Shown: positions 15,657 to 60,141 of the stretch, piece by piece
Layout: each line of letters begins with the position of its first letter
Position numbering within the stretch: position 1 is the stretch's first letter
Assembly: GCF_022045235.1 (NCBI RefSeq)
Contig: NW_027266319.1
Location: 42,532,001 to 42,596,000, forward strand
DNA length: 64,000 bases
Source: Haliotis cracherodii
Lineage: Eukaryota
Direction: 5' to 3'
Translations under genes and position numbers: made by a program
Notes under the pieces: generated by a model
Database searches by the model: none
Told to the model about the DNA's origin: nothing
What the model saw: only the letters and a program-made list of their open reading frames with translations

Positions 15657-15741
15657 GAAATTAAATACAACTTAACACCAAACAGACCACGCATCCACAG
15701 CCGCTCTGTGTCCCAGTCATCCACGGATAGCTACAGCTCAG
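15657..15741 (+). CDS. AHCYL1: IRBIT/AHCYL exon encoding the first half of the serine-rich phospho-region (EIKYNLTPNRPRIHSRSVSQSSTDSYSS)
   Basis: Acceptor tttctttttcag|G, donor CAG|GTGAGC (phase 0 to phase 1). SRSVSQSSTDSYSS closely matches the vertebrate IRBIT motif SRSISQSSTDSYSS. Confidence 0.93.
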
Positions 15742-17053
15742 GTGAGCAGCTAGTTTAATACATGTACCATGCTCAGGTGAGCAGCTAGTTTAATACATGT
15801 ACCATGCTCAGGTGAGCAGCTAGTTTAATACATGTACCATGCTCAGGTGAGCAGCTAGTTTAATACATGTACCATGCTCAGGTGAGCAGCTAGTTTGATA
15901 CATGTACCATGCTCAGGTGAGCAGCTAGTTTAATACATGTACCATGCTCAGGTGAGCAGCTAGTTTGATACATGTACCATGCTCAGGTGAGCAGCTAGTT
16001 TGATACATGTACCATGCTCAGGTGAGCAGCTAGTTTAATACATGTACCATGCTCAGGTGAGCAGCTAGTTTGATACATGTACCATGCTCAGGTGAGCAGC
16101 TAGTTTAATACATGTACCATGCTCAGGTGAGCAGCTAGTTTAATACATGTACCATGCTCAGGTGAGCAGCTAGTTTGATACATGTACCATGCTCAGGTGA
16201 GCAGCTAGTTTAATACATGTACCATGCTCAGGTGAGCAGCTAGTTTAACACATGTACCATGCTCAGGTGAGCAGCTAGTTTGATACATGTACCATGCTCA
16301 GGTGAGCAGCTAGTTTAATACATGTACCATGCTCAGGTGAGCAGCTAGTTTAATACATGTACCATGCTCAGGTGAGCAGCTAGTTTGATACATGTACCAT
16401 GCTCAGGTGAGCAGCTAGTTTAATACATGTACCATGCTCAGGTGAGCAGCTAGTTTGATACATGTACCATGCTCAGGTGAGCAGCTAGTTTGATACATGT
16501 ACCATGCTCAGGTGAGCAGCTAGTTTAATACATGTACCATGCTCAGGTGAGCAGCTAGTTTAATACATGTACCATGCTCAGGTGAGCAGCTAGTTTAATA
16601 CATGTACCATGCTCAGGTGAGCAGCTAGTTTAATACATGTACCATGCTCAGGTGAGCAGCTAGTTTTATACATGTACCATGCTCAGGTGAGCAGCTAGTC
16701 TAATACATGTACCATGCTCAGGTGAGCTGCTGGTCTAATACATGTACCATGCTCAGGTGAGCAGCTAGTCTAATACATGTACCATGCTCAGGTGAGCAGC
16801 TAGTCTAATACATGTACCATGCTCAGGTGAGCAGCTAGTCTTATACATGTACCATGCTCAGGTGAGCAGCTAGTCTTATACATGTGCCATGCTCAGGTGA
16901 TCAGGTAGTCTAATACATGTACCATGCTCAGGTGAGCAGCTAGTCTAATACATGTACCATGCTCAGGTTAGCAGCTAGTCTAATACATGTACCATGCTCA
17001 GGTGAGCAGCTAGTCTAATAAATGTACCATGCTCAGGTGAGCAGCTAGTCTAA
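15736..17053 (+). repeat. 35-bp minisatellite (gctcaggtgagcagctagtttaatacatgtaccat), 38 starts, whose first unit spans the exon donor
   Basis: gctcag at 15736, 15771 ... 17031, an exact 35-bp period. Confidence 0.97.
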
Positions 17054-17194
17054 CACATATAGACACACAGAATGGTGGATGCTCGAAAAGCATGGGGAAT
17101 AAAGTCAGGGGCCAGGATTTAATCGGCTTAGTGATGTTAAAGAATTGGTATAAAAGAGATGGTATTGGAGACATTTTTAGCTTAAAATCGGAGA

Positions 17195-28723: not shown

Positions 28724-30557
28724 ACCAGAATCTTAAATGATATCATGAAGGTGTCTTTGATCTTTGCGTTTTATTCGAATTAAGGTGAAAAGTTTGTAAT
28801 GGCTTTCTATGATAGAAATGCAGGGTTGGAAATTATTTTTTTATTTTCACTTGCCTGCATGAACATCCGTTACAGAGTTGCCTTCTAACTTATGGTATCA
28901 GTGGTGGTCCACAACAAAATGTCACTAGTCTTTCCTGAATTTTACTAGGCTCAGACTTGTGAACATATGTAATGATAAATTATGATTTATGATCACTCAG
29001 TTTCCCTGTCATTCAATATTTATAATAATTAAGTTAAGTAAATTAGTCCTTTTATAGTAGATTATAAGGACTGTCTTTATTTCACTCGAGTTTTAGTTGA
29101 ACTGACAAGAGAAATAAGTTCAATTTCATTGATGATATTTACTTGATTTAATTAGTGATATTCACTGAATTTTTTTTAATGCTATTCACTCAATTATGGC
29201 ATATAAGTTTGACGTTTAGAAATTGTCTGCATGTCATTTTGGCTCATGTTCAGCTCAACGTACAGCTTATTTTTAAAGGATGCAGTGGTCATAACTTAGT
29301 CTTTGGAAGATGTAAGTATTGTATCAAGAAAAGGTGCACAAACAGTATCCACTGTACTTACTGTAGGTATTTAAATGAAACCCCCCCATCTCTCCACAGT
29401 CCCCATGCTTGTATCAACAGTGACATGGTCAAGCTATCGTTACATGGCGGCGTAGCAGGAGTAAACAAACTCTCTTCAGGCCATACATAATAGATAATGC
29501 ATTAGAACATTGTGGCATCACAGTACAATGACGCAACAAACCATACTAAGGGAACAAGGGAGATTCAACTTAATGGAAAACAGTCTGATAAACTTGTTTT
29601 ATTTATTTTCTAACAGCTTGTCATAATAGTAATTGTTGTAATAATTGTCAGAACGTAAAGCTTGTACATTAGAAAAATTGTAAATTTCACATTTCCAAAT
29701 TTGGCCAAATGCTTACTTAAAGGTACAGTGGGGCTATTGGTCAGATATATTTGTGATCTGTGCAAATTTATGTGTAATTTTAGCTTAAGTTAAATGTCTC
29801 CAAAAAGTATTCTTTACAACCGGAGCATATAATAACATATGCAATGTTTCTTTTGTTGCAATTAAGATTTTCTCTGTCAAAGAAATTAGTATCATTTGCT
29901 ATCTGTATTTAGATTTTAGATGTCAGGCAGCATGAATTGCCACATTTAGATACTCTAGGAACACACTCAGTCAAATTTCGTTGGTTGTCTCAAATGTTTA
30001 GATTGTTTATAACTGCTTATCATCTGACTTTTAGATGGCACTTTTCCCATTTTTGTGCTTTGAGTTACAATGGTTAAGTTACTTTGCGTGATAGACATAG
30101 CACTTTGATGATTAGGATTAAAGGTCGGCCCTAATGTTAAAACATTTTTGTAATCCTTTGGGGTTAGTTTTGGAGCTCTTATGTGACTTATGATCTAACA
30201 TTGCGAGTTTGTGTGTGTATTTGATTGAGTATTTGAATATGAATAGATGTTACTGAACTGATCCTTTGAGCCAGGTGAGCTACAGAAGTGGAGGAGATGA
30301 GCTGTCTGGGACGTGTTGCAGTAGGCTTTACAACCAGCTTTACACTGTACTTTATTGTGCTGAAGATTAATGTTACACAGATAAGAGCAGTCTCCTATCC
30401 TGCATGAATTGCTTTCTTCACTGAAGGAAATGTTTTACCACTCATGAACACTGCATATTTTATCCATACCCAATCTGATATATGTCGAGGGATACTGGAT
30501 CCCAGTACAGGTGATTAGCAACATTGGACTTCATTGTTATTGAAGAAAAGCTAGACT

Positions 30558-38557: not shown

Positions 38558-40633
38558 ATTTTCATTGACCAGTTTTGTTATTATCTGTTCGTTCCCCCAG
38601 ACATATATGATGTAATTTTTCACTGTGCACAATACACAAAATAGCAGTTTTCCTGAAACTTATACCCAAGAATAGGGGATGTAGTCTGAAATATACTCAA
38701 ATGTGCACTATGCATATGAAAATCTGTATGTATATATTGTAACTTGATGTACCAGTATAGTGAATAATTTGGAATTAATCTAATCTTGTTTCAAAGATCC
38801 AAATATTCAGGTGCATACAGATCTTAATGGCTCCTTCTCTTTTTCATAATTGATTTGTCATTGACATAAGTTGTATTTGAAGTTCTCTGGCTTGTGAACC
38901 AGTAGGATGTGGCAGTTACTGGTTTGTGCACAGATCAAGCCCTGGATCTTCTTAATAAAAGTCCAGTTTCCACCCTTGCCGAATTATTGAATTCTATTTT
39001 GGCTTGACTTATAAGTCTATGCATAGGCAAATCAAAATCACATAACGAAATCGGCATCTGCTTCGTAACCTGCCATGCAGATTTAGGTCAATTGCAGGAT
39101 TTGCAAAGCATGTGTACAGACAACTCAGGATCAAGAGATATTTTCAAAATGTTTTCATTTTTTTAATCATGGTGTTGATGTGAATTGATGCGAAGTAAGA
39201 CCCATTTTATCACAATAATGATTTTGATTATTGATGAGATGGTCTTGACTGGGCGCTGTCATTTTGTTTGAAGCAAATGCAAGTGATACGAGAGGTGAAA
39301 CATAGGAGGAATATTTCTCATAATAACCGCTGGTGTCGCTACAGGCGAACCCCAAAATCCTAGCCTTGCTCGGGATGGGTTGGAAAATGGACTTTTACAG
39401 TCAGTTAACTCCCTTACCTCAGGAAGATGCATTAGTTGGAGTGTGTCTGGGCTCTCCGTGACATAAAGGTACAGGAATTGTGTAGCCAGGGTGAGGCTGC
39501 AACAAGGGAAGCAGGTAATCTCACACACGTCTGCTGCAAGTCAACCATCTCACCACACATCTCTGTTACATTGGTGGGAGATTGAAATAGGCTATAGCTG
39601 GTGGTTATGACAGTGTACATTCTGTGCCTATCAAACATGGGTATTGTGGGTGCTGCCCTTTTCAACATGCTGCTTAGGCTTTGATCAGGTGTGGTATAAT
39701 AATGATTACATGGAATATGTTTGCGCACTGAATTATTGATTTTGCCATATTTTTTACTTTTTGAGAAGTTTATTTTTGTGCCTGGTTGTTTGTGTTAGGG
39801 GATAGTTTATTAATAGAAGTGGCTTTGAGAGTAGGTCTCAAGTTATTGATTGAATGCAAAGATTGATGAAATTGGTGTAGACTCGTAAACTAATAAATTC
39901 ACAGTTTGGTGTACTGGGCAGGCTTGCTGATTGGCTGTCAGACATGTATCCAAGGCTGACTGTTTGCTTGTATTAATCATGTGTATTATATGATGAAAGG
40001 CTGGCAAATCCTTACAGGTTAAAAAGGCCGAGACTAATCCTACAATTCTATTGTGATCAAACATAACCGTCCCTGCCAATTTGAGAGCTTGGTTTTTTTC
40101 CCCCTGTGTGTGAATGGACTGTTCCATGGCTGTGTGAGATCCACTATAGACGGATGGGAGAGATCCTGCTTTGTGGAGTGCAGGTTGTTATCTATTGCTA
40201 TAGGAAGTCAGTCAGGGAGTTGAAGCAAGCTTACAACCATAACACAGGTCGTGGCCAACCCAAGTCAGCTGGCATCTGAAAGGCAGTGTGTGTTCAGTGA
40301 GTGGGAGAAGACGGGGAGTATAGTGCTAGCCAAGGTGCCCTCTGATTCCTCCATGCAGTAGCGTGCCTCACTCTGCTGCTGCTGCTGAAGGATTAACTCA
40401 ATTGATTGGAGATTTGTTATTGTCTGACACTGTGTGAGGTGTGAGAGGAAGGGGACGAGTGTCATGGTAAGACAAGTGGCAGTGTCGTAGTCGCCTCTCC
40501 ACCCATACTACGGACCTACCCACTGCCTGTGTTCACCTGTCTGGGCCGTCACTGGGAGTTCTGAGGCAGACTACTGTACAAGCTGTACATTGCATCCCAA
40601 CCGGACAGATCTACATTGTAAATACACACAAAT

Positions 40634-40877
40634 ATGTCGGAGATACTAGCAAAGAAGTTCCTTAGCTTCAAGACTAACTCGAGTGAGAACTTTGACAAGT
40701 TTCATGAAGGTGAGAAGATGCAGAACATGGTGGATGAAGAGGGTGAGGACGCATACCGTGCGCGTGCTGGACGTAAACGTCACAGCGTCCAGCTGGACAA
40801 GCGCCTCACCCAGCAGCTGATGGCCCTTCAGGACAGAAGGTCCAGCACAACCAGCACTGGCACACTCGATTCTCTCT
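40634..40877 (+). CDS. AHCYL1: Alternative first coding exon of the IRBIT-like gene (81 aa, MSEILAKKF...RRSSTTSTGTLDSL), joining exon 60083 in phase 1
   Basis: Clear coding composition; ATG start; consensus GTAAGT donor after 244 nt (phase 1); T+CA gives ..DSL-SSYTGSSSDEEDISPREKPQ in frame. Confidence 0.75.
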
Positions 40878-41219
40878 GTAAGTCACACGCTAACCACCTC
40901 ACTCTGGGACCACTGTCGTAGTATATGTTATCATGCTGCACATATTGCTGTTTATCCATGTGCAAATCAGTGAGCATCACAAATTCTTGTATTTGTTGAA
41001 TTCATTATTGATATTTCATTGAACCATCACTCATAGACTAGGAATAATTCCCAGTAGATGAATATGAGTAATGAAAACTGATATTACTACATAATTCAGC
41101 AATATTTGCTGTTGCATGTGATAATGATGGCTCATGCAGGTGCCTTGCATTCAATTTTATGACTTGTGGTAATCCTATGAATTGAATTATCATCTGTTGA
41201 TTTGTCTTCATAGCTCCAT

Positions 41220-43655
41220 CCCACCTGCCACCAGTACTCCCCACCCTACCTGCCACCAGTACTCCCCACCCTACCTGCCACCAGTACTCCCCCACTTCAC
41301 CTGCCACCAGTACTCCCCACTTCACCTGCCACCAGTACTTCTCACCTGCCATCAGTACTCCCCTCTTCACCTGCCACCAGTACTCCCCACCTGCCACCAG
41401 TACTCCCCACTTCACCTGCCACCAGTACTCCCCACTTCACCTGCCACCAGTACTCCCCACTTCACCTGCCACCAGTACTCCCCACTTCACCTGCCACCAG
41501 TACTCCCCTCTTCACCTGCCACCAGTACTCCCCTCTTCACCTGCCACCAGTACTCCCCACTTACCCTGCCACCAGTACTCCCCTCTTCACCTGCCACCAG
41601 TACTCCCCTCTTCACCTGCCACCAGTACTCCCCACTTACCCTGCCACCAGTACTCCCCTCTTCACCTGCCACCAGTACTCCCCTTTTCACCTGCCACCAG
41701 TACTCCCCACCTGCCACCAGTACTCCCCTCTTCACCTGCCACCAGTACTCCCCACTTCACCTGCCACCAGTACTCCCCACTTCACCTGCCACCAGTACTC
41801 CCCTCTTCACCTGCCACCAGTACTCCCCACTTACCCTGCCACCAGTACTCCCCACCTGCCACCAGTAGTCCCCACCCCACCTGCCATCAGTACTCCCCTC
41901 TTCACCTGCCATCAGTACTCCCCTCTTCACCTGCCACCAGTACTCCCCTCTTCACCTGCCATCAGTACTCCCCACCTGTCATCAGTACTCCCCTTTTCAC
42001 CTGCCACCAGTACTCCCCACCTGCCACCAGTAGTCCCAACCCCACCTGCCATCAGTACTCCCCTCTTCACCTGCCATCAGTACTCCCCTCTTCACCTGCC
42101 ACCAGTACTCCCCACCTGCCACCAGTACTCCCCTCTTCACCTGCCACCAGTACTCCCCTCTTCACCTGCCACCAGTACTCCCCTCTTCACCTGCCACCAG
42201 TACTCCCCACCTGCCACCAGTACTCCCCTCTTCACCTGCCATCAGTACTCCCCTCTTCACCTGCCACCAGTACTCCCCTCTTCACCTGCCACCAGTACTC
42301 CCCACCTGCCACCAGTACTCCCCTCTTCACCTGCCACCAGTACTCCCCTCTTCACCTGCCATCAGTACTCCCCTCTTCACCTGCCATCAGTACTCCCCTC
42401 TTCACCTGCCATCAGTACTCACCTCTTCACCTGCCATCAGTACTCCCCTCTTCACCTGCCACCAGTACTCCCCACCCAACCTGCCACCAGTACTGCCCAC
42501 CCCACCTTCCATCAGTACTCCCCACTTCACCTGCCATCAGTACTCCCCTTTTCACCTGCCACCAGTACTCCCCTCTTCACCTGCCACCAGTACTCCCCTC
42601 TTCACCTGCCACCAGTAGTCCCCACCCCACCTGCCACCAGTACTCCCCACCTGCCACCAGTACTCCCCACCTGCCACCAGTACTCCCCTCTTCACCTGCC
42701 ACCAGTACTCCCCTCTTCACCTGCCACCAGTACTTCCCTCTTCACCTTCCATCAGTACTCCCCACTTCACCTGCCATCAGTACTCCCCTCTTCACCTGCC
42801 ACCAGTACTCCCCTCTTCACCTGCCACCAGTACTCCCCTCTTCACCTGCCACCAGTACTTCCCTCTTCACCTTCCATCAGTACTCCCCACTTCACCTGCC
42901 ACCAGTACTCCCCTCTTCACCTGCCACCAGTACTCCCCTCTTCACCTGCCACCAGTACTCCCCTCTTCACCTGCCACCAGTAGTCCCCACCCCACCTGCC
43001 ACCAGTACTCCCCTCTTCACCTGCCACCAGTACTCCCCTCTTCACCTGCCACCAGTACTCCCCACCTGCCACCAGTACTCCCCACCTGCCACCAGTACTC
43101 CCCTCTTCACCTGCCACCAGTACTCCCCACCTGCCACCAGTACTCCCCACTTACCCTGCCACCAGTACTCCCCTCTTCACCTGCCACCAGTAGTCCCCAC
43201 CCCACCTGCCACCAGTACTCCCCACTTACCCTGCCACTAGTACTCCCCACCCCACCTGCCACCAGTACTCCCCACTTACCCTGCCACCAGTACTCCCCTC
43301 TTCACCTGCCATCAGTACTCCCCTCTTCACCTGCCACCAGTACTCCCCTCTTCACCTGCCACCAGTACTCCCCTCTTCACCTGCCACCAGTACTCCCCTC
43401 TTCACCTGCCACCAGTACTCCCCTCTTCACCTGCCACCAGTACTCCCCTCTTCACCTGCCACCAGTACTCCCCTCTTCACCTGCCACCAGTACTCCCCTC
43501 TTCACCTGCCATCAGTACTCCCCTCTTCACCTGCCACCAGTACTCCCCACCTGTCATCAGTACTCCCCACCTGCCACCAGTACTCCCCACCCCACCTGCC
43601 ACCAGTCACCAGTACTCCCCACCAGTCACCAGTACTCCCCACTCCATCTGCCACC
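41220..43655. repeat. 25/20-bp C-rich minisatellite (cacctgccaccagtactcccctctt), ~2.4 kb
   Basis: Continuous periodicity; source of the Pro-rich and Gly-rich ORFs. Confidence 0.97.
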
Positions 43656-43679
43656 TATAGTCCATCATATAATTTGATA

Positions 43680-43920
43680 TAATTATGGGAGTAGATATTA
43701 TCCACTGTGATATAATTATGGTAGAAGATATTATTAGGTACTGAGATATAGTAAAGGTAAAAAATATTAATATCAACTGTAATATTATTATGGTAGTAGA
43801 TATTATTAGGCACGGAGATATAGTAAAAGTACAAAATATTAATATCAACTGAAATATTATTATGGTAGTAGATATTAATATCCACTGTGCTATTATCATG
43901 GTAGTAGATATTAATATGCA
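43680..43920. repeat. Short AT-rich degenerate tandem repeat
   Basis: Recurrent tattatggtagtagatatta and aaaatattaatatcaactg motifs. Confidence 0.7.
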
Positions 43921-46900
43921 CCTGGAAAAGAGTTATGCACCAATCCCTCCATATTTTCATATATTCTGAACTTGCATGTTATTTTCGGAAATTCATCCAT
44001 GACATTGATGTCATTTTGATAATTGTCTGAGATCAACCTGATGACACGGCAGACTGTTCCATATGGTGGCAAGGACTGGATCATGTCATCTGATGAGAAG
44101 AAGCAGAGAAAACAATCAAATTTAGGCTGTCAAATCACCTTGAAACAGTTACAAAATATGTCGTTCTTGGAATATGTATTTTAAAATACAGTTTGTTAAC
44201 AAAATCAAATGTGTTTTGTCAGAAAAGATATTATTGATTTGATTTGCTATTAAATTTGCTGTTTTATGTCAAAATATTGAACAACGCTCAGTTATTTTCC
44301 GTGTGTTTAAGTGCTTCCCATGTGGGTTTTGGTCTGCTGTATAGTTAGCACCAAATTTCCAGGACTTTGAAACCACCATCACTTGGACATTACACTCACT
44401 GGATGCTTGATACTATCACTTGGCCCTGATACTATACCAGCAGAAATCTATTTTCCCATAGCTTTCTGCATACATTTCACAAGATACCTGCACCTATAAG
44501 TACGCACTCACGCACGCACACAGGACGAGGTGTTGATGTGTTGCCCCTGGAACAATAGACATTAGTACATGATTCTTGATGCAGTCCTACTTGTACTGGG
44601 ATGCCTGTGTTGGCACTAGCCATAGACGGAAATAGACATTGTTTCTGGATGTAAATGATACAGATCTTAACTTGATACCATGGGAAATACCTGCACTGCA
44701 ACCCACACTTCTTTCTAATGAGGGTAATAATAGCCTCCTTGGTGGGCATTGATTGTGTGAGGTATATGCTGTGTTTCCCTCCAAGAAGGCAATGTTGTTT
44801 CCTTGGATGTATGTGTAGGACAGGCAGCACGGTGCTCACATTCCATTCACACCCAGGAAACAACAGGAAACACTCAGTTTGAGAACCCAAATCCTGACCT
44901 GAAATATTAATGGGGTGTGATTATGTAGCATTTAGTTGTTTGACTAACTTGATCGTTGATCAATAGACATAATTGCCATGGTGAACACAGCTGATATCTT
45001 GACCATAGATTAAGCTGCAAACTGATACTGTTGTGATCAACCCCGTGTATGGTCACCTTGGAAACCAGATGCTTAGTACCCATACAACTAACACTAGTAA
45101 TAAATGATGTGCTAACAAAGAAAAGGTTGTCATCTCAATAGAATACATCACTTTCTCTGTAGGGTTCGAGTTGGTCATCATGCAGTTTCTGTTTGTGTTG
45201 GATGTGGTAAACATGAAGGCAGTCATTAGCACATCTATCATGCAGTGCTTAGCTGGACACAAACATGCCTACATAATTATAACTATAGCAAACCTTTTTC
45301 AATTTTGCTGGGTTTTTTCACTAGAGTTAAGATTGAAATGACGTCTTTATGTTCTAGTTATGCGATATTTCCTCATGTAGGATTTGTCTGCTAACAGGGA
45401 CATGATCAGTGAGACAAGACGAGACAAGACGAGACAAGATAAACAAGTTTCATCACAGTATACTTTGTTTGCATGTGTTACCAGTAGGTCAATAAAGCAT
45501 AGAACATGTTCTCCCAACGACACTTTTGCCCTTGACAAACCAGCCCCACCCAAACTATTTCACACCCATACATTACATCATGCTTTGCTTGCTAGAACCT
45601 TAATTTAGTCCCAATGAACCGAAAGAGGAATATTTGACATGATTAGTTTGCAAAAGGAATGAAATATAAAGAATTAGGATATAACAAATATTTGTATATA
45701 TTGAAAATTTATTGTAATTGTAAGGCCACACTTATTTAATGTATGTTTCACGTATTTATTCCAGCTTTTTCACTCAAGGATGGTCAAAATAAAAACAAAT
45801 AGCTTTATCATACCTTCATGTTAGAACGATGAGATCTGATTGGTCCACATGATCTTGATACTTGATCTTGATACCACATGATACTGTGTATCACGCCTTG
45901 GAGGGAAATAAATTTTTCAGCAGTGAATAAATCCCTTATACCCCGCCACAAGCAAGCACGTGGATTTCTGAGAGGCGGAATAAATCCCTAAAACCTCGCT
46001 TCGATGTAAAAAGTTGCGCACTTTTTTACGAGTCAATGAAAGTCACGTTACATAGCATAAGTTAACCTCAGTTCATTCAAACAGCTGTGTTCTGTCAATT
46101 TTGAATTTGTTTTCATTCTTTCACAATGTCATTAAGATAAATTTATAGTAGCAGGATCGCCATGTACCCCTTGTGATCCTGCTACAACTTATAATGTCAA
46201 TTATTTATTTGTTTGTTTATTTATATTAAAGTTATTCTGCTGTATAGTTCAAACTGCAGTTGGCTTCTTGAATCACTGATAGTGATGTACGCACAGAATT
46301 TTTATATAACTTTTTTTTTTATGTGAGGGTCTATATTACTAGCGGGAGACTAATAGTGGCCCAAAGACAATGAAGCATTACGTACATATATGTTTATGAG
46401 ACAATTATTCAGTAGTGCCATCAAGTGTGTGATGTTGCGAACACTACTTCATGGAGTCAGTTGTCACTACTTATCTAGATTTGTTGATTGTTGTTTTTGT
46501 TGAGGAACATATAGTTCAAAAATTCAATTGAACCCTATTTAACATAATAGCATAAAAACATGAAAAAAGCATTTCTCACATAATAACTTAGTATGTAGTA
46601 GTGGTACGTAGGTGTTGGAAATGTTATTGATGCTGAGAGAGAACATTTTTGAAGACATGTAGACATAATATGGCATGTGAATCAGTTCAGTTTGTTTGAT
46701 GTGGAAGAGAGATAACATTGTGTGTAAATACCAGCTAAATAAATAGAACCACAATTGACACTGCAGATGTATGCGTGAAGACCTCATGACAGTCAAACAA
46801 GAGCAATGCAGTTTCTTTCTAAATGACAGTCTTACACATTTGTTATTGTCAGTGTGAATGCAACCTTACTTCTAAAGTTCATTATTGAGGAGAATGCTGC

Positions 46901-48169
46901 CTTTCCCCTTGCTGTGATATCTGAGGGTACAACTAGAGGTGTAACACACATCCTCACTTATGGCGAAATTTGGTTATTCATACATCTCGTTGTTTGGCAG
47001 AAACTGTATGGAGAAAAACAATACAGTTTGCAGTTTCTTAGTATAACAAAGAGCCCAGCATGTATATGTGGTTTATTTAAGAAATAAACGATGAGTGGGA
47101 GTTGTTTATCATACTGTCGTTTATTTCTTATATAAGATATCAACATTATGTACAGCCTCTTTAAGGATTATGATTATGGTAAAATGTACAAGTTTTAGAA
47201 ATATTTACATGTATTTTAATAATGATGACTCTGTCAATAGAATCCGACCACGGCAATGTCGGACAAGTCCATTTTTCTGCACAGATGGATATTTCCTGCA
47301 TATTCTCACAATCCTCATGTCGATTTCCTGTACCTTTTGTCATATCTCTCTTGCTTTTGGATGCTTTCGTTCAGTCATCGTATTTATCTGCATTGCCCAG
47401 CTACATCTAGACACTAGACACTGGACACTCCCCTCTCGGAAATAATGTCCAATATACGACTTTATGATCATCAAGTTGTGAGCCATACTTGAGTCTCCAG
47501 GAGTGATGTCATGATAAAACAATGTTTTATCGTGAAATAAACCATGCTTCATTCTTCATTGGTCTTTGCATCGTGTAGCTATCTGATGTACAGTGTTAAT
47601 GGTTGTCCGTCACTCAGGGTTTAACATATCATGCCTTGCATATGTTCCCACTTTCATTGCATTGATATCTTCCAGCCATGTCAAACCTGAGATTTCTGAA
47701 GAGAGGCTGGCTGATATACAATGTTCCAGTTGGCCATTGTGTCAAGGTTTCTGGGATATGGAACATGTGTTGCCTGACCCACACACCTCTGACATACACT
47801 CTTCAAACAACCCTGGCAGAGGTACAAACACAAGGAGGCCTGAGTGGGAAGGTGGTATGGTTCATTTCACAGTTAATTAGAAATATCTAAAAATTGCATG
47901 TCAGTAATCACATGTTTGCTGATCAACTTGTGTGTGTGTGACGTTGTTGATCACAGTGACAGGCAGTCAACACAGGTCTCTCATCACTTGAACTCAGGCA
48001 TAGCACTGGCCCACTATCCTGTGCCAGTTTCCATAATGCAAAGGAAATCCGAAGAGCTGGTAGAATTTCAAACCTTTTGGGTTGATATTCTAGTATATTA
48101 TCTCTATTTAGGCCAGTAAACGTGATTGGTTAATTTGTATCCTTGTCTTTACACAGTCTGTAGTGACCT

Positions 48170-48975
48170 TCTGACACAGGCTAGAGTTGCTGTCTGAACA
48201 AGGCTAGAGTTGCTGTCTGACCCAGAGTGTAGTTGCTGTCTGACCAAGGCTGTAGTTGCTGTCTGACACAGGATGTAGTGGCTGTCTGACCCAGGCTATA
48301 GTTGCTGTCTGACCCAGGCTGTAGTTGCTGTCTGACACAGGATGTAGATGCTGTCTGACCCAGGCTATAGCTGCTGTCTGACCAAGGCTGTAGTTGCTGT
48401 CTGACACAGGATGTAGATGCTGTCTGACCCAGGCTATAGTTGCTGTCTGACCCAGGCTGTAGTTGCTGTCTGACCCAGGATCTAGATGCTGTCTGACACA
48501 GGCTAGAGTTACTGTCTGACCCAGGCTAGAGTTGCTGTCTGACACAGGATGTAGATGCTGTCTGACCCAGGCTGTAGATGCTGTCTGACCCAGGCTGTAG
48601 TGGCTGTCTGACCCAGGCTGTAGTTGCTGTCTGACCCAGGCTATAGTTGCTGTCTGACACAAGATGTAGATGCTGTCTGACCCAGGCTATAGTTGCTGTA
48701 TGATCCAGGCTGTAGTTGCTGTATGACCCAGGATATATATGCTGTCTGAACCAGGCTGTAGTGACTGTTGTATGACCCAGGCTGTAGTTGCTGTCTGACC
48801 CAGGCTGTAGTTGCTGTCTGACACAGGCTATAGTTGCTGTCTGATTGAGGCTGTAGTTGCTGTCTGACCCAGGCTGTAATGACTGTTGTATGACACAGGC
48901 TGTAGTTGCTGTCTGACCCAGGCTGTAGTTGCTGTCTGACCCAGGCTGTAGTTGCTGTCTGAAACATGCTGTAGT
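48170..48975. repeat. 23-bp minisatellite (gctgtagttgctgtctgacccag), ~35 copies
   Basis: Direct periodicity. Confidence 0.95.
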
Positions 48976-49166
48976 GGTTTTCCCTGCTAGTCATCAACAC
49001 ATCCTGAAAGCAGCTTCTGGCCAACTGTCAACATCAGTTAAGCTTCTTTCATTCAGGACATGTAACTTCAACTGAACATTATTTTGGCTTGTGTATGTGA
49101 CCATGCAGTTGCAGCCTGTCAGGCTGATTGTTGTTTGTGTGTGAGTGTCATGGTCAGGATGCCCTC

Positions 49167-49227
49167 ATGGCAGATGAGGGGGATATGAGCGGCCTGGGAT
49201 CGAGTGAGGCCTCTCAATTTAGTCCGG
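49167..49227 (+). CDS. Candidate alternative first coding exon of the IRBIT-like gene (MADEGDMSGLGSSEASQFSP, phase 1)
   Basis: ATGG start with in-frame TGA upstream (49125-49127); donor CGG|GTATGG after 61 nt, in frame with exon 60083; acidic/Ser-rich peptide. Confidence 0.5.
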
Positions 49228-49544
49228 GTATGGTCAACACTGATTGGAAGCTGGTTAATTTGTGCTGACATCCATGAAATGGAGGCCATTAACGGCTTGT
49301 CACTATCAGTCAGTTAAGTGAAGTTATTTTGATAGAATCCAGATCAGCATCAAGCAGGGAGATGTATAAGAGGATGTACCTTGATGCAACCTGGATATGG
49401 ATTTTGCAGTGAATTAGACTTTTTACTCCCAGGCTCTTTGGTCTTCAGCTCAACACATGAATATCTCATTACATATCATATCTGATTACTAAAGAATTCA
49501 CTGTTATTTCTGTCATATTTCCAACTATGTGAACCACCAATTAT

Positions 49545-49695
49545 TAACCTCCGCCTAAACAAAGTTTGGCTTGGGGTACAGAAACAGGCTCCATCCGCCT
49601 GGAGCATAACTAAAGGCTCAACATTTTGTCATTAAACTTTGTATACACATCAGGTATGCCTTTTGTTACTTCTGTATTTCTAAGGCAATAACATG
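49545..49695 (+). mobile_element. Degenerate fragment of the Helentron-like/satellite family
   Basis: ttattaacctccgcc..ggggtacagaaacaggctccatccg..ggagcataact..aaacttt..tgcctttt resembles 563-760 and 62934-63110. Confidence 0.5.
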
Positions 49696-51130
49696 TTGCC
49701 AAATAATACACTCATTTCAACTATAAACTTATAAAACATTCAATAGTATACAAATAATTACTCTTGATGAGGTCAATATGAGAAAAGAAGGACCCAAGGC
49801 CCTGACCCCCCAAGGTGGCCAGACCACCGAAGGGGTCAGTCCTTCGCATATTACCCTCCTCAAAAGCAATCATGTGTTTTGTTATCCTGAAATATTACAT
49901 TTATGAAGCATTTAAACCATCCTCTGTTTCATTACAGTAACTTAGCTATAAACCTAAAAACCATGTAAATGTCAGTTTACCACAAGCCATCCAGCAGATG
50001 AGTGAATATTCATCACATGACAGGTCAATACTGATCTTTTGACGGGTTAATGTTTCAGGTCACAGTCAGTAACGGGATTTGGGGGTCTACATTCAAATGT
50101 ATTGTTGCATCACATGATACGGATGAACCAGTGGAATGGCATTCTGAATAGAGGTTTTAACGAGGTTTTAACAAGTCTTGATGAAAGTTTGTAAGCACCT
50201 CAGATATCATACCTCCCTGTTGGAAGTCTAGGTTAAAATAGGTTCCCAGCTATCTGTGCTTGTTTTGTGAGGCCTCTGGATCGGGTGGTGAGGCTTGTTG
50301 ACTTGTTGACTTGTCAGAGACAGAGAGGGATGTTCCACATGATGTAGACTAACACTCGGAAAACATGTCATTTTGATAGAAACAAACAACTACATATAAA
50401 CTGAAAAGGAGCCCCAGTGAGATGGGAGATTCAGAACCTTGGAAAAAAGGAAAATTTGCTTTATTTAGGACTGGCTATAGCATTATTGTAAGGGCTGGAC
50501 GAAAGGGAAAATAATATCTATCAGGGACTGCGAGACAGACTGCTCATAATGCAGTGTTGATTGAAAAACAGAGTATCGTACATCAATTCACGAACTGTTT
50601 TATATTGTTGCTATTTCATATGGAATTATGATTTTGATTTTTGAAAACATTGTAAGCGACATGGCTTTGAAAGTAAAAGTTCGATCTGTTGAAACACTGT
50701 GACCATTACTAATTCATGTCATGAGAATGTATAGGAAGTATATAAAGAATAGAGGGAATTATTTGGTTAAGTCTTATCAGTCAACAGTTTTGGTATGATG
50801 AGAGATATGACTTAAATTAAATGTACACATTTTTTGTGTGATTTTCTGCACATATTTAGGACAAGATATCGATGACAATGTGTTGATCTGTCATTTGTTT
50901 GGGCCATCTTTTAACATCTTTACGACATGGCCATGGTATCAAACTACCAACCTTCCACTCTCCAGGTAGATGCTCTATCCACTGGACCATGGATGAATAT
51001 ACTGGGCCACCTTACATGGTGATGGTTTGTGACACACTTCAGCCAGCTGTTACAACCTTGTGTCAGGCATTGCATCACACAAATATATTACCTAGGCCAT
51101 GCTGTTCTTCTATTTATGTAGACAATCAGA

Positions 51131-51396
51131 TGCTGGCCTAGAACATGTTAGGTAGGCTGACCATGTACCGGTACTGCTGGCGTAGAACATGTTAGGTAGG
51201 CTGACCACGTACCGGTACTGCTGGCGTAGAACGTGTTAGGTAGGCTGACCATGTACCGGTACTGCTGGCGTAGAACATGTTAGGAAGGCTGACCACGTAC
51301 TGGTACTGCTGGCGTAGAACGTGTTAGGTAGGCTGACCACGTACCGGTACTGCTTGCGTAGAACATGTTAGGAAGGCTGACTATGTACTGGTACTG
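51131..51396. repeat. 44-bp minisatellite, 6 copies
   Basis: Unit tgctggcgtagaacatgttaggtaggctgaccatgtaccggtac. Confidence 0.95.
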
Positions 51397-52764
51397 TTGT
51401 GTTGGTCATCTACCCACTACAACTACACCTCGGTTAAAACGCTGATCATCTTTTACACTCATCAATTATTTGGACCCCAAAGGTAGCGCTGTAGCGAGGG
51501 ATCACTGTACATGTATATATTTATATGTATAAATAAGTGATTTCTTCGGGTGCATGAGCATTAAATATACACGTCCAGACATTTGTGCTTGTCAAAACTC
51601 ATTGCTGCACACATGTGTAACATGAATATGGGTATAGAGTTCTGGGGGTTGTGAAATATAAAGAGGATATGTGGCATTTCTTATAAAATGACATGTTTAT
51701 ATCATCAAGAGACCTGAGAAGTTGGAATATCCATGAGTGGGGCAGATCAATACATGAGATTAACAGGTCATTGACATAAATAGACGTGTGGTCCAGTTTA
51801 TTTTGTAGTTTCTTCCTGATCTTGTTGATGTTTCTCTGAAAACCACAGTGTCATTGATGCAGAGTGAAAGTATAGTTGGGCATTAAGTGTTATGTTACTC
51901 AAGTGAAAAGTCACTTTTATAGTTTGAAACATATATAGTATATCCATAATAAAGTGCTTTATTGTTTATCATCATATTGAATTAACATAATTAATGAAGT
52001 CCTCAGTCACCACCATGCAATCACCATCAAGCGGGAAAGAATGATAAATTATTGTGTTTTATTGCAAGCTGTTAGCCTGTAGTAACGCTTAGACTGACTG
52101 CCATGTATGTCTCACCTCAGTTTTATTCAATGATGAATAATGCACCAATAGCTGATTGAGGAATGGCATCAGGTTGACAACTTACGTATGCATCCATGCA
52201 AGTCTTCACCAGCAGCCTGACATAGACTATAGACACAATGAAGCCATCAACTCCTAAATGTTAATGTAAATGTGTACCTGCAAGATGGAAGTATAATTTA
52301 TCCCCTTATGTTTGGGTTAATGACATAGACTTTTGGGTGAAGACAGAATATTTATGACAATGACTTAATTACTGTGAGAATCTAAGTGCCAGTGGTCTGA
52401 AGTCGGATGGAAGTGGTTCTGTGAGGACAACAGTTATAACATCTGTAATGGCCCCCTTTGCATGTTCCCCTGAAACCAGGAAACATAATTAGAGCAAATT
52501 TGGACCCATGATCATAGGTTTCTGGCAAGCCCAAGTTACACAACTTTGCAAAATGACGCCTGTGCCCCCTTATTGCATTGCATGTATAGGAATGATATAG
52601 CGCTGTTTCAGTGGATGCATGATTAGTAAGCCATTTTTCCACTGTGGCCAGAAGTGAAGAAACCTGAGGATTTATTAATTGTATGAAAACTGTCGATATC
52701 ATGTCATACCAACATTATCCTGTCAGCTTTTTGCAACAGTGTTTCCCTTCAATGACAAAGTCCT

Positions 52765-53125
52765 GGCCTGCCTCCGTGGTCTAGTGTTAGAGCCTCCGCC
52801 TGGAGAGCAGAAGGTTGGGGGTTCGATCTCCAGCTACATCATACCAAAAGATGTTTAATGATGGAACTTGTTGTTACCCTGTCTGGCGCTTGGCATTAAG
52901 GGACTAAAACAAGCACTAGTGGGCTCGGAGTCAGTATACTGTGTCTGAGTGGGATACTCATGTTAAACTGCAGCATGGTATCTCAGTGGGCTAACACTAT
53001 AAATTCAGCATTAGTACAGACTAGTACAAACAGGCACACACGCATGCACGCACATGTGCATGCAACATCACAATATGAGTGCAATAATCTTGAACAAGAC
53101 GTTAAACCCCATATCACCTCACCTC
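52765..53125 (+). mobile_element. SINE family B, full length (tRNA head + Meta-like core)
   Basis: A-box tggtctagtg, B-box ggttcgatctc, core catcataccaaaagatgtttaatgatggaac..ggcgcttggcattaaggg, (acctc)n tail; gtcctggc near both ends. Confidence 0.9.
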
Positions 53126-53135
53126 ATAAGGGTCC

Positions 53136-54624
53136 TGGCATGTACTGACTGATCAACAAAGGGAGGCCTTCTCTCTCTGTGATCCCAGCTATACTCTGGC
53201 ATGTACTGACTGGTCAACACAGGGAGGCCTTCTCTCTGTGTGATCCCAGCTATACTCTGGCATCTACTGACTGGTCAACACAGGGAGGCCTTCTCTCTCT
53301 GTGGTCCCAGCTATACTCTGGCATGTACTGACTGGTCAACACAGGGAGGCCTTCTCTCTGTGTGATCCCAGCTATACTCCGGCAATGGTACTGACTGGTC
53401 AACACAGGGAGGCCTTCTCTCTCTGTGGTCCCATCTATACTCTGGCAATGGTACTGACTGGTCAACACAGGGAGGCCTTTTCTTTCTGTGGTCCCATCTA
53501 TACTCTGGCAATGGTACTGACTGGTCAACACAGGGAGGCCTTCTCTCTCTGTGGTCCCATCTATACTCTGGCAATGGTACTGACTGGTCAACACAGGGAA
53601 GCCTTCTCTTTCTGTGATCCCAGCTATACTCTGGCATCTACTGACTGGTCAACACAGGGAGGCCTTCTCTCTCTGTGGTCCCAGCTATACTCTGGCATGT
53701 ACTGACTGGTCAACACAGGGAGGCCTTCTCTCTCTGTGGTCCCAGCTATACTCTGGCATCTACTGACTGGTCAACACAGGGAGGCCTTCTCTCTCTGTGA
53801 TCCCAGCTATACTCTGGCATGTACTGACTGGTCAACACAGGGAGGCCTTCTCTCTCTGTGATCCCAGCTATGCTCTGGCAATGGTACTGACCGGTCAACA
53901 CAGGGAGGCCTTCTCTCTCTGTGATCCCAGCTATACTCTGGCATGTACTGACTGGTCAACACAGGGAGGCCTTCTCATTCTGTGATCCTAGCTATACTAA
54001 ATGGCATGTACTGACTGGTAAACACAGGGAGGCCTTCTCTCTGTGTGATCCCAGCTATACTTTGGCATGTACTGACTGGTCAACACAGGGAGGCCTTCTT
54101 TCTCTGTGATCCCAGCTATACTCTGGCAATGGTACTGACTGGTCAACACAGGGAGGCCTTCTCTCTCTGTGGTCCCAGCTATAATCTGGCATGTACTGAC
54201 TGGTCAACACAGGGAGGCCTTCTCTCTGTGTGGTCCCAGCTATACTCTGGCAATGGTACTGACTGGTCAACACAGGGAGGCCTTCTCTCTGTGTGATCCC
54301 AGCTATACCCTGTCATCTTCAGACGGTGCACACACAGGGAGGCCTTCTCATTCTGTGGTCCCAGCTATACTCTGGCATCTACTGATGGTGCAGACACAGG
54401 GAGGCCTTCTCTCTCTGTGATCACAGCTATACCCTGTCATCTTCAGACGGTGCACACACAGGGAGGCCTTCTCATTCTGTGGTCCCAGCTATACTCTGGC
54501 ATCTACTGACGGTGCAGACACAGGGAGGCCTTCTCTCTCTGTGATCACAGCTATACCCTGTCATCTTCAGATGGTGCACACACAGGGAGGCCTTCTCTCT
54601 CTGTGGTCCAAGCTGTACTCTGGC
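53136..54624. repeat. 61/63-bp minisatellite, ~24 copies, starting at the 3' flank of the SINE
   Basis: Unit ctggcatgtactgactggtcaacacagggaggccttctctctctgtgatcccagctatact; a variant type occupies the distal end. Confidence 0.96.
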
Positions 54625-54942
54625 TAATCTGATATAATGGCGGGGTGAGATTCACCAGAACTGCAAGTCTGTTGACTACTGTGAATGCAATGATGTATGA
54701 TTTTGCTCATCAATTTGTAGCCCGCAGGTACTGATAGGCCAGGGAAGCCTCTCAAATGCTTTCCCCTTTAGAACCCATGCTTAGTACACAGCTGTAATGT
54801 TGTATCAGTCTAGTTATGTGAACAGAGAGCTTGTGTGTGTGTGAATGAAAAGAGCTTCATGATGAAAGGAACTGTATTGCAGACACTAGTTTCAGTAATA
54901 TAGTTTCAGCTGTACCAGTGATATTGTCTCCATATTCATCAA

Positions 54943-55105
54943 GGGGCAGTCGGGTAGCCTAGTGGTTAAAGCGTTTGCTTGTCACGCCGAAGACCGAGGT
55001 TCGATTCCTGACATGGGTACAATGTGTACAGCCCATTTCTGGTGTCCCCCGCCGTGATATTACTGGAATATTGCTAAAAGCGACGTGAAACCATACACAC
55101 TCACT
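54943..55105 (+). mobile_element. Short SINE family C with tRNA-Asp-like head
   Basis: A-box tagcctagtgg, cttgtcacg anticodon-loop remnant, B-box ggttcgattcc, tail shared with family A; 12-bp TSD catattcatcaa / catgttcatcaa. Confidence 0.9.
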
Positions 55106-57138
55106 CATGTTCATCAAACATTTGTAATAGGTTTGTTCAGTGATAAATAGCTGTCTTTTGGTAAACTGCTGGGAAATAAATAAGTGTACTTGTATTTGTA
55201 TAATTGTCTAAAGTTTGAGCCAAGGGATACAATGCAGTGTTTGCGTTGTTCTCCAAAATAATGGGTACTATCTAGGGGGCGTTTAGGGGCATGCCCCCCA
55301 CAGGAAATTTTGTTAAATGTGGACCTGAAATGGTGAACTTGAGGCCATTCTGAGCATAAATAAGTGTATGGTTAAAATCTTTAAGTGTCAGTTTTTATGT
55401 GTGTACACAAAACATCTCAGAATCTGTATAGATTAGCCACTTGACTCTTTCAACAGCTGTGACACCTGTGACACTGAGTTCCTGGGGACTCTCATGTGAT
55501 AGATGTAGCCAACATTTATCAAGGAAAATATTTGCTTGTAAAACATAGTACTGCACCATGACTGTGGAATATATTTATTTTATGAAAACAACACCAATCT
55601 AGAAACATATACAAAAGCAAGTCTAGCCAGCTCTAGCTAGGAAATCAGCATAGGGAAAATTATTTATTTATTTTTAGAGTTGAGAAGGGTATTGTGTAAT
55701 ATGAAAATCATAAAATCCACTTACCTATTTCTTTTTTATTTTCATTGTTTACGTGATCAGAAAAGAATTTTAAAAATAATTGTCAGTAGAATCTGTCATC
55801 ACCAATTTCCCGATAACAGTGGCTGTCCGCTCAGTAACATGAAGAAATACGTCCGTTTTCAGAGCTTCGAATTAGAAAGCTTATTTTTTCATCTACACAA
55901 ACCTCGCCCAGAGTCTTTTCGTAGCTGTAACATGCTTTCTTGCCAATATCTGCTACGAGGGTGGTGATTGGTCAAACTAGAGCACATGACCTATTGCTGT
56001 CAATCAAATTACAGCAATGCTACCTGTGTAATGAATTTAAGATTTTGGTGAAAGGTTTTTGTTATTCTGAAAGTTTCAAGCAGGAAACTCACGATCTATA
56101 TTAAACACATGGAACTTCATGGATGTATCGTGCTAGGTTAGGAGCTGTGACGAAGGTTTTTCAGGCATATTGGAAACATCGTATCCTAGCCGAGAAATCG
56201 AGGCGCCGAAAGCCGAGATGACATTTGACTAACATTACACGCGATCACATGAAAACATGGAAATAATAACTTAGCTGTAAGTTTGACAACTTATAGATAC
56301 ATTTTGGTTGATTTTATTTATTATTTTGTATACTATATTTAAAGATTTGCAAGAAACGTCTTTATTTTGCTCTTGGACATTTTCAATCTGGACCCGTTGT
56401 CGAAGTGTGTGTCAGAGAATTTTACTTTCAATAACATCGAGGGAAATAGTGATTAATTTTTAATCTATCAATAAAATATGATAAATTGAAATGGAATACG
56501 TATTTCAGACATTGTGAAATGTGATAGATTTGATAAATGAATGATATGACAGGTAAGTTCATAAAATTATATAGATCTACCCTCTATTTTGATGTGACCA
56601 CGGCTTGGCCGGTCTACTGGCCTACTGTGTATTAATTGGCTCTTTAAGCGAACTTTCTAGAAACCTATTTTTCTTTTGACAAGGTTTCGGCGATGCCATT
56701 TGGACCTTAGTCCTTGACATTGACAAAATACTGTTAACAAGGTCTGCGATTGGCTTCTGTTTCTATTTCCGTTTTGTAAACCAATCAGCGATGCCATTAC
56801 GGACACAACATGGAAGAGAAACGTCATCAGATACCTCTCCGTTTCCCACATTCAGACCGAAATCTGGCTAGCGCCAGAACCCAGCGAATATTGGATACAC
56901 ATTATCGCATGGGTTTGGGGAGCAAGAGAAACACGAAACAAAACAACAATAAGTTATGAGTGAAGTGAACATTTTTTCAGAATGAAAAACGCGTGAGGGG
57001 ACACGTGTATATTGGGTTTTTTTGCGTCCTGTTTTTTTTCAGTGTGTATTTTTGTATATTGGACGCCGTAAACACAAACACTACAATGGATCCCCAGTAT
57101 TGTATGACAGGCATTTCTTAGAAGTTGACGGATGACAA

Positions 57139-57313
57139 AGTAGATAAAAATGTGTTTTGGATAACAACTTCTTTGTTACACTACAGTTGCGATGTTTTGG
57201 TATAGTTTCTTGTATCGTTGTCAAGTGAAACTGATTCTGTATCAAATGTATTTAAAAACATCGCAATTTCAGTATAAGAAAGAAGTTGTTACCCATAAAT
57301 ATTTTTGTCTATT
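57139..57313. mobile_element. Palindromic MITE-like element with ~60-bp arms
   Basis: ..ggataacaacttctttgttacactacagttgcgatgtttt / aaaacatcgcaatttcagtataagaaagaagttgttaccca.. inverted arms. Confidence 0.7.
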
Positions 57314-57334
57314 TTAGGTCCCTAGTCATCTGTG

Positions 57335-57510
57335 CTGGACGTAAGAGGCAACATAACTGGTTGGTCAGGTTCCGTGAATTAGTTGACAATGTGACATTTT
57401 TAAAAAGATAGCAGAGATTGTTGCTCATAATATCAATCACTGATTTGTCTGGTCCAGACTCAATTATTTACAGGCTGCTGTCGTATGGCTGGAATATTGC
57501 CAGAGTGAGA
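57335..57510 (+). mobile_element. SINE family D (Nin/Deu-like) fragment
   Basis: cgtaagaggcaac..ggtcaggttc..caatcactgatttgtctggtccagactcaattatttacag shared with 63561-63764. Confidence 0.75.
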
Positions 57511-60082
57511 CACAAACATTGTGATGTATTCTGTGAAAGACATTGACCTCAGGGAGTGACCTTTGTGCCAGCTAACTGATTATCAATATTGTGTCATCCT
57601 GTCTGCGCCACTGGCCATAATTTATCTGTTGTGTTTGACAGAGAGGAGACCGTTGTACACTGGCTCTGGACAGAAACTCAAGTGTACCAACACTGGAGAT
57701 CAGTAAAACCTATATAATGTGATGAAGTAATATGGACTGACGTACAGTAATCACTGTGTTTGTATGTAAATTGGTGACATGTGACAAATCTAGATGCTCC
57801 ACACTGTAGCTGGTGCATATAAAACGGCTACAGATTGTTATTGGGGTCAGTAGCAAATAGTGGCCAGAGGTTGCTGACCGTGTTACATCACCATCAAGTT
57901 GATCCACGGTGCAGGTCAACACACCTGCCAGGAGAAAGAAGGAATCATGTATATTTACTTTGAAAGTGAATTGGTAAATGACTTACTTCAATAGGCTGTG
58001 TGAACTTATAATAAGGCCCATGACCTTTATCGGACAATGTTATCCCAAGGGTAACTAAATCTACACATCAAGTTCGACATAAGTGCAATGTTACGTCACT
58101 GATTACCAGATGTCCCCTCGGGCTAAGATTGAGATGTTGGCCGTGTTTGAGAAGTGGTGCCTTGGGCTGTGTGCTGCACCATACTTTTACCTGCTAAAAC
58201 AGTCCATACTCTTGTGTGTAGACATCGCTTGTCATCACCAAAACAAATCAGGACATCACAATAGACACTTATTAATGCTGACCTCAGTGGCTTGGAGCTT
58301 CCCAATCCTTTATAGGTGTGTGCCTGAAGGCAGTCGGAAGTCTACGCAGGATATGCATACATTACACCTGTCAGCTAAGAAATGACGTTCATATTTTCAT
58401 ACATCACCCATGACAATTACTATCCTGTGGTAGGCACTGGACCTGTACCCCTGTCTAGGTTGACATCAGTTGAGGAGAGAGAGATTGTCCACTCTATTAT
58501 CTGACAGTCACTGGACAACACAGGTATTCCACTCTTACCTGACAGTCGTCCAGCTTTCACGGCAGTCACACACTTTAACACAGGAGTACACTAGCAGCAA
58601 CTACCATCATAATGAGAGACCATAGTGTTTGTAAGTATCCAGGGTGTGGTACCAGTGCCCCACACAATACACACATTGTACATTGAGTGGTCTAAGCTAA
58701 CCTGTAATTCAGAATCTGTGTTTCTTAAAAAAAAAAAAAATGTTTTTGAATGTCTGTTTTCATCAAACACTGCAAGAAGTTTCAATCATTCTTCACAATG
58801 CTTCTAATGCTTCTTGATGCCATTGTGTTTGTCTTGTGAGCCACTCACACATTGCCCTGCGTTTATTCATCCTTGTCTGGTGGCAGGTTGGCTCTGTGTC
58901 TCAGCTACCTGCTGTAGAGGAAGAGGTGCATACACCTCTCCATGTCAGGTCACACAGAGTTGGTTATTGTTATTATTCTGTAACCTGTTCCTTTCAGTTG
59001 TGTTGTAAGACAGTAGACATCAGTGACCTATTTACTTTTTCAGCATATGCATTGAATGATAGTATACTTATGTTTCCCAACAAGAGCCTTTTTCAAATCA
59101 TATCAGTACATATCCACACAAGATCTGATATGTAACCTCGTTTTTGTTCATGATGCATACTTTGAATATAGCTTGGCCTTAGTTTGAGGACATTGTCCCT
59201 CTTTCTATGTAAAGATATATGGCTAGAGAATATTGGGGATAATAGCTTGATAGTTATAAATATACTGACATTTGCTTCAAAGACAAGACAAGCTTGGAAA
59301 ATGATGGCGTCTCTACAAGAAATCATATGGCAGCCAATTTCCTCTGTACATAGCAGGAAGCCCGACACATGTAATGACCGTGAATTGTGTCCTCTGCCGG
59401 CTGGCATAGGCTACCTCCCTTCTGCCAAGGTGAAACCAATGACGCTGCCTGTCACACACAAATAAACCTGTCCTCATCTTTCCACCTCTCTGTCTCCTAA
59501 GTCAGAGTATTTGTCATGCCTGACAGTTCCGTCCTGCAGAGCATGTAGACTAACTGCTTGAGGCATCTCCTGCCCACTAGAATTAATTACACAGAGACCC
59601 CTAGGTTATGCAGTTCCTACAGGACCTAAACCTGTGTTGGAATTATGTTTAAAGTTTCTTATACAGTAATTAGACTCAATTTGTCCATATTAGGGATATA
59701 TCAGCAGCTTGAATGTACACTTGAGACCAGACATTTTGAGTCATGGCCTTCTATTGTATGAATAGTGATGGTGAAAAAAAGAAGATCTTTCTATGTTTAT
59801 AGTGAACTATGCTATTTTTGACAGGCCTCTCTGACAAACCAAAGCTACGTGTTGTTTTTCTTGCCAATGTACAGGGGTCCCTTATTTCAAGACACTTTGA
59901 TCTGCTTAAAGCAGACAGAATTAAATACATCTAACAAAATGTCAAGGATTTGAGGATTTAATCACATCTTGATAAAGAACCCAACAAAATCCAATCTAAT
60001 GGAAATGTCAGTGAATGTGAAGTAAATTAGCAGGTTTGCTTTTCTGGGATGTAAATTTTTATGGCTCTTATTTGTTTTTCAG

Positions 60083-60141
60083 CATCCTACACAGGCAGCT
60101 CATCTGATGAAGAAGATATCAGTCCAAGAGAGAAACCTCAG
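60083..60141 (+). CDS. AHCYL1: IRBIT/AHCYL common exon encoding the second half of the serine-rich region (xSYTGSSSDEEDISPREKPQ)
   Basis: Acceptor ttatttgtttttcag|, donor CAG|GTAAGT (phase 1 to phase 0); matches vertebrate IRBIT ASYTDSSDDEVSPREKQQ. Confidence 0.93.

Follow-up and report, generated by a model that had tools for sequence, protein, structure and literature searches.

IRBIT regulates calcium channels and ion transporters, and the window analysed here, a 64,000-nucleotide stretch of the genome of the snail Haliotis cracherodii (C56:42532001-42596000), contains several exons of the gene for this protein (Table 1). Among these, the shared exon accepts a phase-1 splice, likewise from the canonical serine exon; the latter and the exon at 40634-40877 both feed the acceptor at 60083, as had been claimed in the initial annotation of this DNA. 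A genome search placed the canonical upstream first exon at C56:42483096, about 49 kb before the window; tblastn over the window itself and over 40 kb in four stretches upstream of it gave no canonical first exons. The gene body was mapped exon by exon downstream on the same contig (tblastn), where an AdoHcyase family search of the genome gave five exon matches; five further matches, on contig C2, belong to a second, separate AdoHcyase locus, leaving one AHCYL locus in the genome search. An orthologous full-length isoform (P0002) has both PF05221 and PF00670 (AdoHcyase-like, C-terminal) above cut-off. Among 15 species pairs, 12 have a letter-identical body behind both N-terminal types and three differ in length downstream, and a separate paralogous gene as the source of the alternative N-terminus was ruled out by the single AHCYL locus together with the body comparison and tree.

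Two further alternative first coding exons, at 30444-30510 and 58612-58630, are spliced in phase to the shared exon in the Haliotis rufescens RefSeq models, and would give IRBIT forms that lack a priming ladder and retain the shared acidic cluster. The joins of these two exons and of the canonical exon to the shared exon are predicted, the contig-based check covering 40877^60083. Another conserved mollusc first exon (in proteins P0013, P0030, P0144, P0166 and P0182), upstream of the canonical serine exon, has its own RRPS site. Starting from the canonical serine exon's donor, about 38 tandem copies of a 35-bp unit occupy 15736-17058; each unit repeats the donor context CAG/GTGAGC, which creates a series of possible decoy 5' splice sites. 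Open frames in the upstream intron at 1699-2562 (reverse strand) and 7958-8503 (forward strand) resemble, by eye, RNase H (retroelement) and FLYWCH/MULE transposase fragments, respectively.

Table 1. Exons and candidate phosphorylation sites of the IRBIT/AHCYL1 gene in the window.
Feature	Position	Strand	Properties and evidence
Canonical IRBIT serine exon, bypassed by the alternative start	15657..15741	+	phase-0 acceptor, phase-1 donor
Further alternative first coding exon, no ladder	30444..30510	+	22 codons, phase-1 donor; encodes the N-terminus of Haliotis rufescens RefSeq isoform X5 at 82% identity
Transcribed 5' leader, running into the alternative exon	40056..40633	+	contigs; five upstream ATG frames, all stop-closed
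Alternative first coding exon, coding part	40634..40877	+	81 codons and one extra base, phase-1 donor GTAAGT; translation, spliced contigs, orthologous N-termini
Upstream basic site RKRHSV (Ser51), 20 residues ahead of the first ladder serine	40772..40789	+	translation; [RK]RxS-hydrophobic conservation
RRSS candidate priming site (Ser71) and ladder Ser74, Thr77, Ser80; fifth step Ser83 in the shared exon	40835..40877	+	translation, conservation
Further alternative first coding exon, no ladder	58612..58630	+	6 codons, phase-1 donor; encodes the N-terminus of H. rufescens RefSeq isoform X6 without mismatch
Shared exon: Ser-Tyr-Thr-Gly-Ser-Ser-Ser and acidic run	60083..60141	+	corresponds to human S80/T82/S84/S85, the CK2 sites and proposed IP3 mimic (PMC13319452)

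At 40634-40877 an AHCYL1/IRBIT isoform has its first coding exon. The ATG of this exon is preceded by an in-frame TAA 15 bases upstream, and the translation places RKRHS at residues 47-51 and RRSS at residues 68-71. The predicted splice 40877^60083 was found in contigs from all four sequencing runs checked, one from each of four studies among the 22 runs listed. None of the listed runs is recorded as RNA and the RNA nature of the assembled contigs is presumed, but the join of 40877 to 60083 within them demonstrates splicing. The resulting transcript encodes an IRBIT whose priming half is exchanged and whose body stays the same. The contigs extend 5' of the exon with no loose end, beginning at 40056, 40139, 40159 and 40271, positions that do not fix the start site. 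The upstream ATGs of the leader open short closed frames of 2-41 codons and may damp translation. At 40634-40648, the codon that is the Met start of gastropod orthologues is Ile (ATA) in H. cracherodii, which uses an ATG three codons further upstream. An artefact or intron read-through was ruled out by the spliced contigs and by orthologues (several of 13 matches) whose unspliced frames stop at the same donor. No Pfam family matches the exon, and the N-terminal segment of the alternative isoform is likely to be disordered.

Both RRSS (68-71) and KRHS (48-51) match [RK]-R-x-S, which we take to be the PKA consensus. From the first of these a ladder of serines and threonines at every third residue runs through S71, S74, T77, S80 and S83, five steps in the alternative form vs four in the canonical form of the snail. 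Within the H. cracherodii sequence alone this ladder is weak evidence and not striking: when the last 10 residues of the exon were shuffled with RRSS held fixed, 16.7% of 200,000 shuffles gave a ladder to +9, whole-frame shuffles of the exon gave the pattern in 0.5%, and a six-frame pattern search of the window returned four matches, two of them outside the exons of the gene. The ladder was judged non-random because it is conserved across genera. A PP1 docking site at RKRHSVQL was not adopted, its last residue being Leu (Tyr or Met in three other matches); the PP1 docking consensus ends in Phe/Trp. Counted from the first ladder serine, the alternative form has Ser at +12, Thr at +14 and Ser at +16/+17, exactly the human register, the canonical snail form having one residue fewer. 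The description of the ladder as one step longer holds against the canonical form of the snail itself, but human IRBIT also has five steps (S68-S80, PMC13319452). The accompanying proposal of an IP3-mimic switch rewired to a different priming kinase needs correcting on one point: the proposed mimic residues S80/S84/S85 map to the shared exon, and it is the priming half that is swapped.

The same type of N-terminus, KR/RRxS-hydrophobic followed by RRxS with Ser at +3, was found on an IRBIT body in at least 39 other genera, belonging to the molluscs, a brachiopod, a nemertean and the arthropods. The source set comprised at least 337 rows with the shared-exon anchor, two window translations included, gathered by homologue searches, cluster look-ups and a representative search. 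For counting, one protein per named genus with RRxS before the shared exon was picked by hand, and the 39 genera plus the window gave 40 N-termini: 12 gastropods, 1 cephalopod, 9 bivalves, Lingula, Lineus, 6 chelicerates, 6 crustaceans and 4 non-neopteran hexapods. Further isoforms of the same genus, fly AhcyL2 and proteins lacking a genus name were left out. The isoform type is already present in RefSeq/GenBank in the form of automatic predictions named only as AHCYL isoforms, for example Patella vulgata X1 (XP_050414283.1), Octopus bimaculoides X3 (XP_014771430.1), Lingula anatina X4 (XP_013414751.1) and Tachypleus tridentatus X4 (XP_076369736.1). The alternative N-terminus was not seen among the neopteran insect proteins listed, fly AhcyL2 excepted, nor among the amphioxus proteins and the single fish protein compared; the compared set took in 15 of up to 196 members per cluster, with no named echinoderm, hemichordate, cnidarian or annelid proteins, and absence from any of these groups is not implied. 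No paper describing the isoform was found in the literature covered, outside which lie Kawaai 2017 and a 2025 Pflugers review that could bear on novelty. The family description in the available text of PMC12955632 is without such isoforms.

The claim of a spacing and a leading arginine shared with the canonical ladder was borne out: Ser occupies +3 in 40/40 alternative N-termini and Arg-Arg is conserved, although the 40 were selected by RR at -3/-2 and Ser at 0, which are hence no evidence. Ser/Thr stands at +6 in 34 and at +9 in 34 of the 40 N-termini, compared with 18 at +1, 5 at +2, 29 at +4, 5 at +5, 13 at +7 and 26 at +8; part of the ladder signal is serine richness, since Ser/Thr is also common at +4 and +8. 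In 13 lineage representatives taken from a set of 36 rows, 25 of the 26 +3/+6 positions hold Ser/Thr (mean of 14.3 in 200,000 shuffles, none of which attained 25), a figure that is no true probability because the lineages are related. The ladder has four to six steps in 31/31 non-bivalves, with five in 12/12 gastropods. In the nine bivalves a two-residue insertion shifts the register and leaves two or three steps (9/9), and a second run at +8/+11/+14 is present in seven of them. That the serine-rich tail is a low-complexity linker behind a PKA site, its three-residue spacing having no role, would fit the shuffled tails of the H. cracherodii exon and the broken ladder of the bivalves; such a linker is nevertheless very improbable given the invariant Ser at +3 beside nearly Ser/Thr-free +2 and +5 and the uninterrupted steps of all the non-bivalves. 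Many insect isoforms (P0263-P0276, P0255, P0311, P0316) drop four residues including the counterparts of S80/T82, apparently through an alternative acceptor in the shared exon.

The canonical N-termini (n=35) differ from this pattern in a consistent manner. At -2 they have Ser or Ala in 35/35 and never Arg, Arg at -5 is found in 31/35 vs 1/40 of the alternative forms, Asp at +5 in 35/35 vs 1/40, and Tyr/Phe at +7 in 31/35 vs 1/40. The H. cracherodii isoform lacks the residues standing between the canonical rungs (Ser +2, Asp +5, Tyr/Phe +7); it is a member of the gene family without the canonical first half. Conversely, a second [RK]RxS-hydrophobic site 12-30 residues upstream is present in 39/40 alternative vs 0/35 canonical N-termini, which extends to the whole type the second basophilic site RKRHS first noticed in H. 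cracherodii; the lone miss is a gene model that begins inside the site. The Ser/acidic cluster of the shared exon, the proposed binder of the IP3 pocket, is retained in 40/40. As the aligned sequences read, the spacing and the basic sites are kept and the canonical surface between the rungs is lost. It could be argued that the kinase input has not changed at all, PKD/CaMKII or another RxxS kinase priming both forms, and that the exon serves mainly as a second promoter with an equivalent ladder. Arg at -3 in both forms, the presence of at least three alternative starts in the same intron, which makes promoter diversity a theme of the locus, and a hydrophobic residue (Leu/Met/Ile/Phe/Val) at -5 in 13/40 alternative N-termini, which fits what we take to be the PKD/CaMK consensus, are all compatible with this proposal. 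It is nonetheless improbable, in that Arg at -2 and the second RRxS site have been kept across molluscs and arthropods while the canonical form keeps Ser at -2 and Arg at -5, and in that flies turned a canonical copy into RRSS after a gene duplication, which suggests a distinct, selected function.

The human switch against which these changes are read has been described in some detail. According to the available text of PMC13319452, PKD/CaMK prime S68 and CK1 extends phosphorylation to S71/S74/S77/S80, and CK2 phosphorylates S80/T82/S84/S85, a step that in cells may require prior priming; the IP3 pocket is probably filled by pS80/pS84/pS85, with pS71/74/77 anchoring at its rim. The available part of PMC5173324 confirms the S68-primed cascade and places a PP1 site at 40-44. 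We favour, with moderate confidence, the reading that the exon gives the single IRBIT/AHCYL1 gene a second N-terminus that takes the place of the serine-rich segment's first half and whose activation would depend on a PKA-type kinase. On this reading the alternative form would be transcribed from an internal promoter, PKA (or PKG) would phosphorylate Ser51 and Ser71, and CK1 would extend from pSer71 along residues 74, 77, 80 and 83; phosphorylation of the shared Ser/acidic cluster by CK2 would then be permitted, as proposed for human IRBIT, and the phosphorylated cluster could engage basic pockets such as the IP3-binding core. The choice of partners is predicted to differ from that of the canonical form because the between-rung residues differ. 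The assignment of Ser71 priming to PKA is inferred from the motif, and a PKA input would not be unique to the alternative form, since PKA already phosphorylates S62/S64/S66 of canonical human IRBIT (PMC13319452).

A second way of reading the upstream basic site has to be weighed at this point. The two basic sites, 13-25 residues apart, could form a tandem phospho-docking pair of the 14-3-3 type, the exon then producing a phospho-regulated IRBIT with different partners that mainly alters IRBIT/AHCY multimers through the shared pseudo-enzyme body. The upstream site is kept in 39/40 genera, as strictly as the ladder, the canonical surface residues +2, +5 and +7 are lost, and most arthropods read RRxS-L-P at the upstream site, which we take to be a 14-3-3 mode I pattern; the molluscs, however, have no Pro at +2 of that site. 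A docking pair alone does not need the conserved +3 spacing, and the cluster proposed for the IP3 pocket is retained throughout. In Drosophila, IRBIT2/AhcyL2 binds ribonucleotide reductase inefficiently, as stated in the available text of bioRxiv 10.1101/737262, and AhcyL2 of three other flies has RRSS instead of the canonical motif, but that result is tied to the fetched fly sequences through the orthologue name only. A docking function as the main role of the exon thus seems rather unlikely, if somewhat less so than an unchanged kinase input.

With regard to the origin of the exon, the initial annotation had supposed it to be ancient, and its occurrence in arthropods carries it beyond Lophotrochozoa; the conservation of ladder positions that went with this claim extends to all 31 non-bivalves and breaks after two or three steps in the nine bivalves. 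A whole-exon profile built from 20 mollusc alternative N-termini scored 13/16 arthropod alternative forms above shuffles, and of the canonical N-termini 3/18 from arthropods and 0/16 from lophotrochozoans. A mollusc profile freed of the ladder still scored 4/16 arthropod alternative forms, with 0/18 arthropod and 0/16 lophotrochozoan canonical N-termini, and the reverse ladder-free test, an arthropod profile on mollusc forms, gave 1/20. Protein P0353 was matched by both ladder-free profiles (0/200 shuffles each), and its nearest rows lie outside the arthropod clade, P0353 itself being absent from the tree. Lingula and protein P0032 retain Asp-Ser-Tyr in the canonical register. The likeness of the alternative exon to the canonical serine exon may stem from either duplication or convergence. 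A single protostome origin of the mollusc and arthropod exon appears likely from these comparisons. It is possible, and we put it forward only tentatively, that protostomes have kept for more than 500 million years two interchangeable IRBIT priming modules, one of the RxRxxS type and one of a double-PKA type, with promoter choice deciding whether control of the IP3 receptor and transporters responds to cAMP; the exon may then have disappeared from neopteran insects, and RRSS may have been re-created in flies on a duplicated gene.

The isoform is real and conserved, and it already stands among database predictions without remark; its function is predicted from sequence. The identity of the kinase that primes IRBIT in cells, and of the phosphates that bind, is still debated, and a natural isoform in which the spacing and the shared acidic cluster alone are retained, with a changed priming site and changed between-rung residues, offers a ready-made test of the two-step model. 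Cross-talk between cAMP and calcium is a classic theme in gastropod neurons. If PKA primes the isoform, cAMP would be linked to IP3-receptor calcium release and to bicarbonate transport in molluscs and arthropods, those neurons included, and the convergent fly paralogue AhcyL2 makes the idea genetically testable in Drosophila.

Compared with known systems, the alternative form resembles human IRBIT/AHCYL1 in having a basic residue at -3, Ser/Thr at every third residue five times over, then a Ser/acidic cluster and an AdoHcyase-like body, all in the same register. It differs in that the snail exon carries RRxS, the PKA consensus, rather than a PKD/CaMK-primed site, in its between-rung residues, in an extra RKRHS with no PP1-type docking motif ending in Phe/Trp, and in coming from an alternative exon of a gene that also makes the canonical form. 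Alternative N-termini within one gene are also known from Long-IRBIT/AHCYL2, none of whose variants V1-V4 is known to lose the ladder. These splice variants (Kawaai 2017, cited in PMC7966362) have different N-termini and targets, with altered stability and target range; unlike the case described here, the variable part precedes the serine-rich region in the scheme given in the available part of PMC7966362. The closest likeness in the motif itself is that of fly AhcyL2/IRBIT2, compared here in Glossina, Haematobia and Rhagoletis and not in the D. melanogaster sequence, which has RRSS followed by Ser at +3, +6 and +9. The name IRBIT2 had no match in the text of the PMC7068126 supplements, a text outside which Figure S1 lies. 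An identical 11-residue stretch at the priming site is shared by fly AhcyL2 (P0107, P0125, P0376) and the alternative exon of Varroa (P0120), though the fly segment is derived from the canonical one. Unlike the alternative exon, fly AhcyL2 is a separate gene, sister to fly AhcyL1 in the tree (support 98/91), and is without the second basic site; its upstream part matches canonical arthropod N-termini in 4/4 and the alternative exon in 0/4 profile tests. The upstream profile test and the tree rule out its descent from the alternative exon, and the RRSS with +3 spacing in flies is likely to be an independent gain, by convergence, from the canonical exon.
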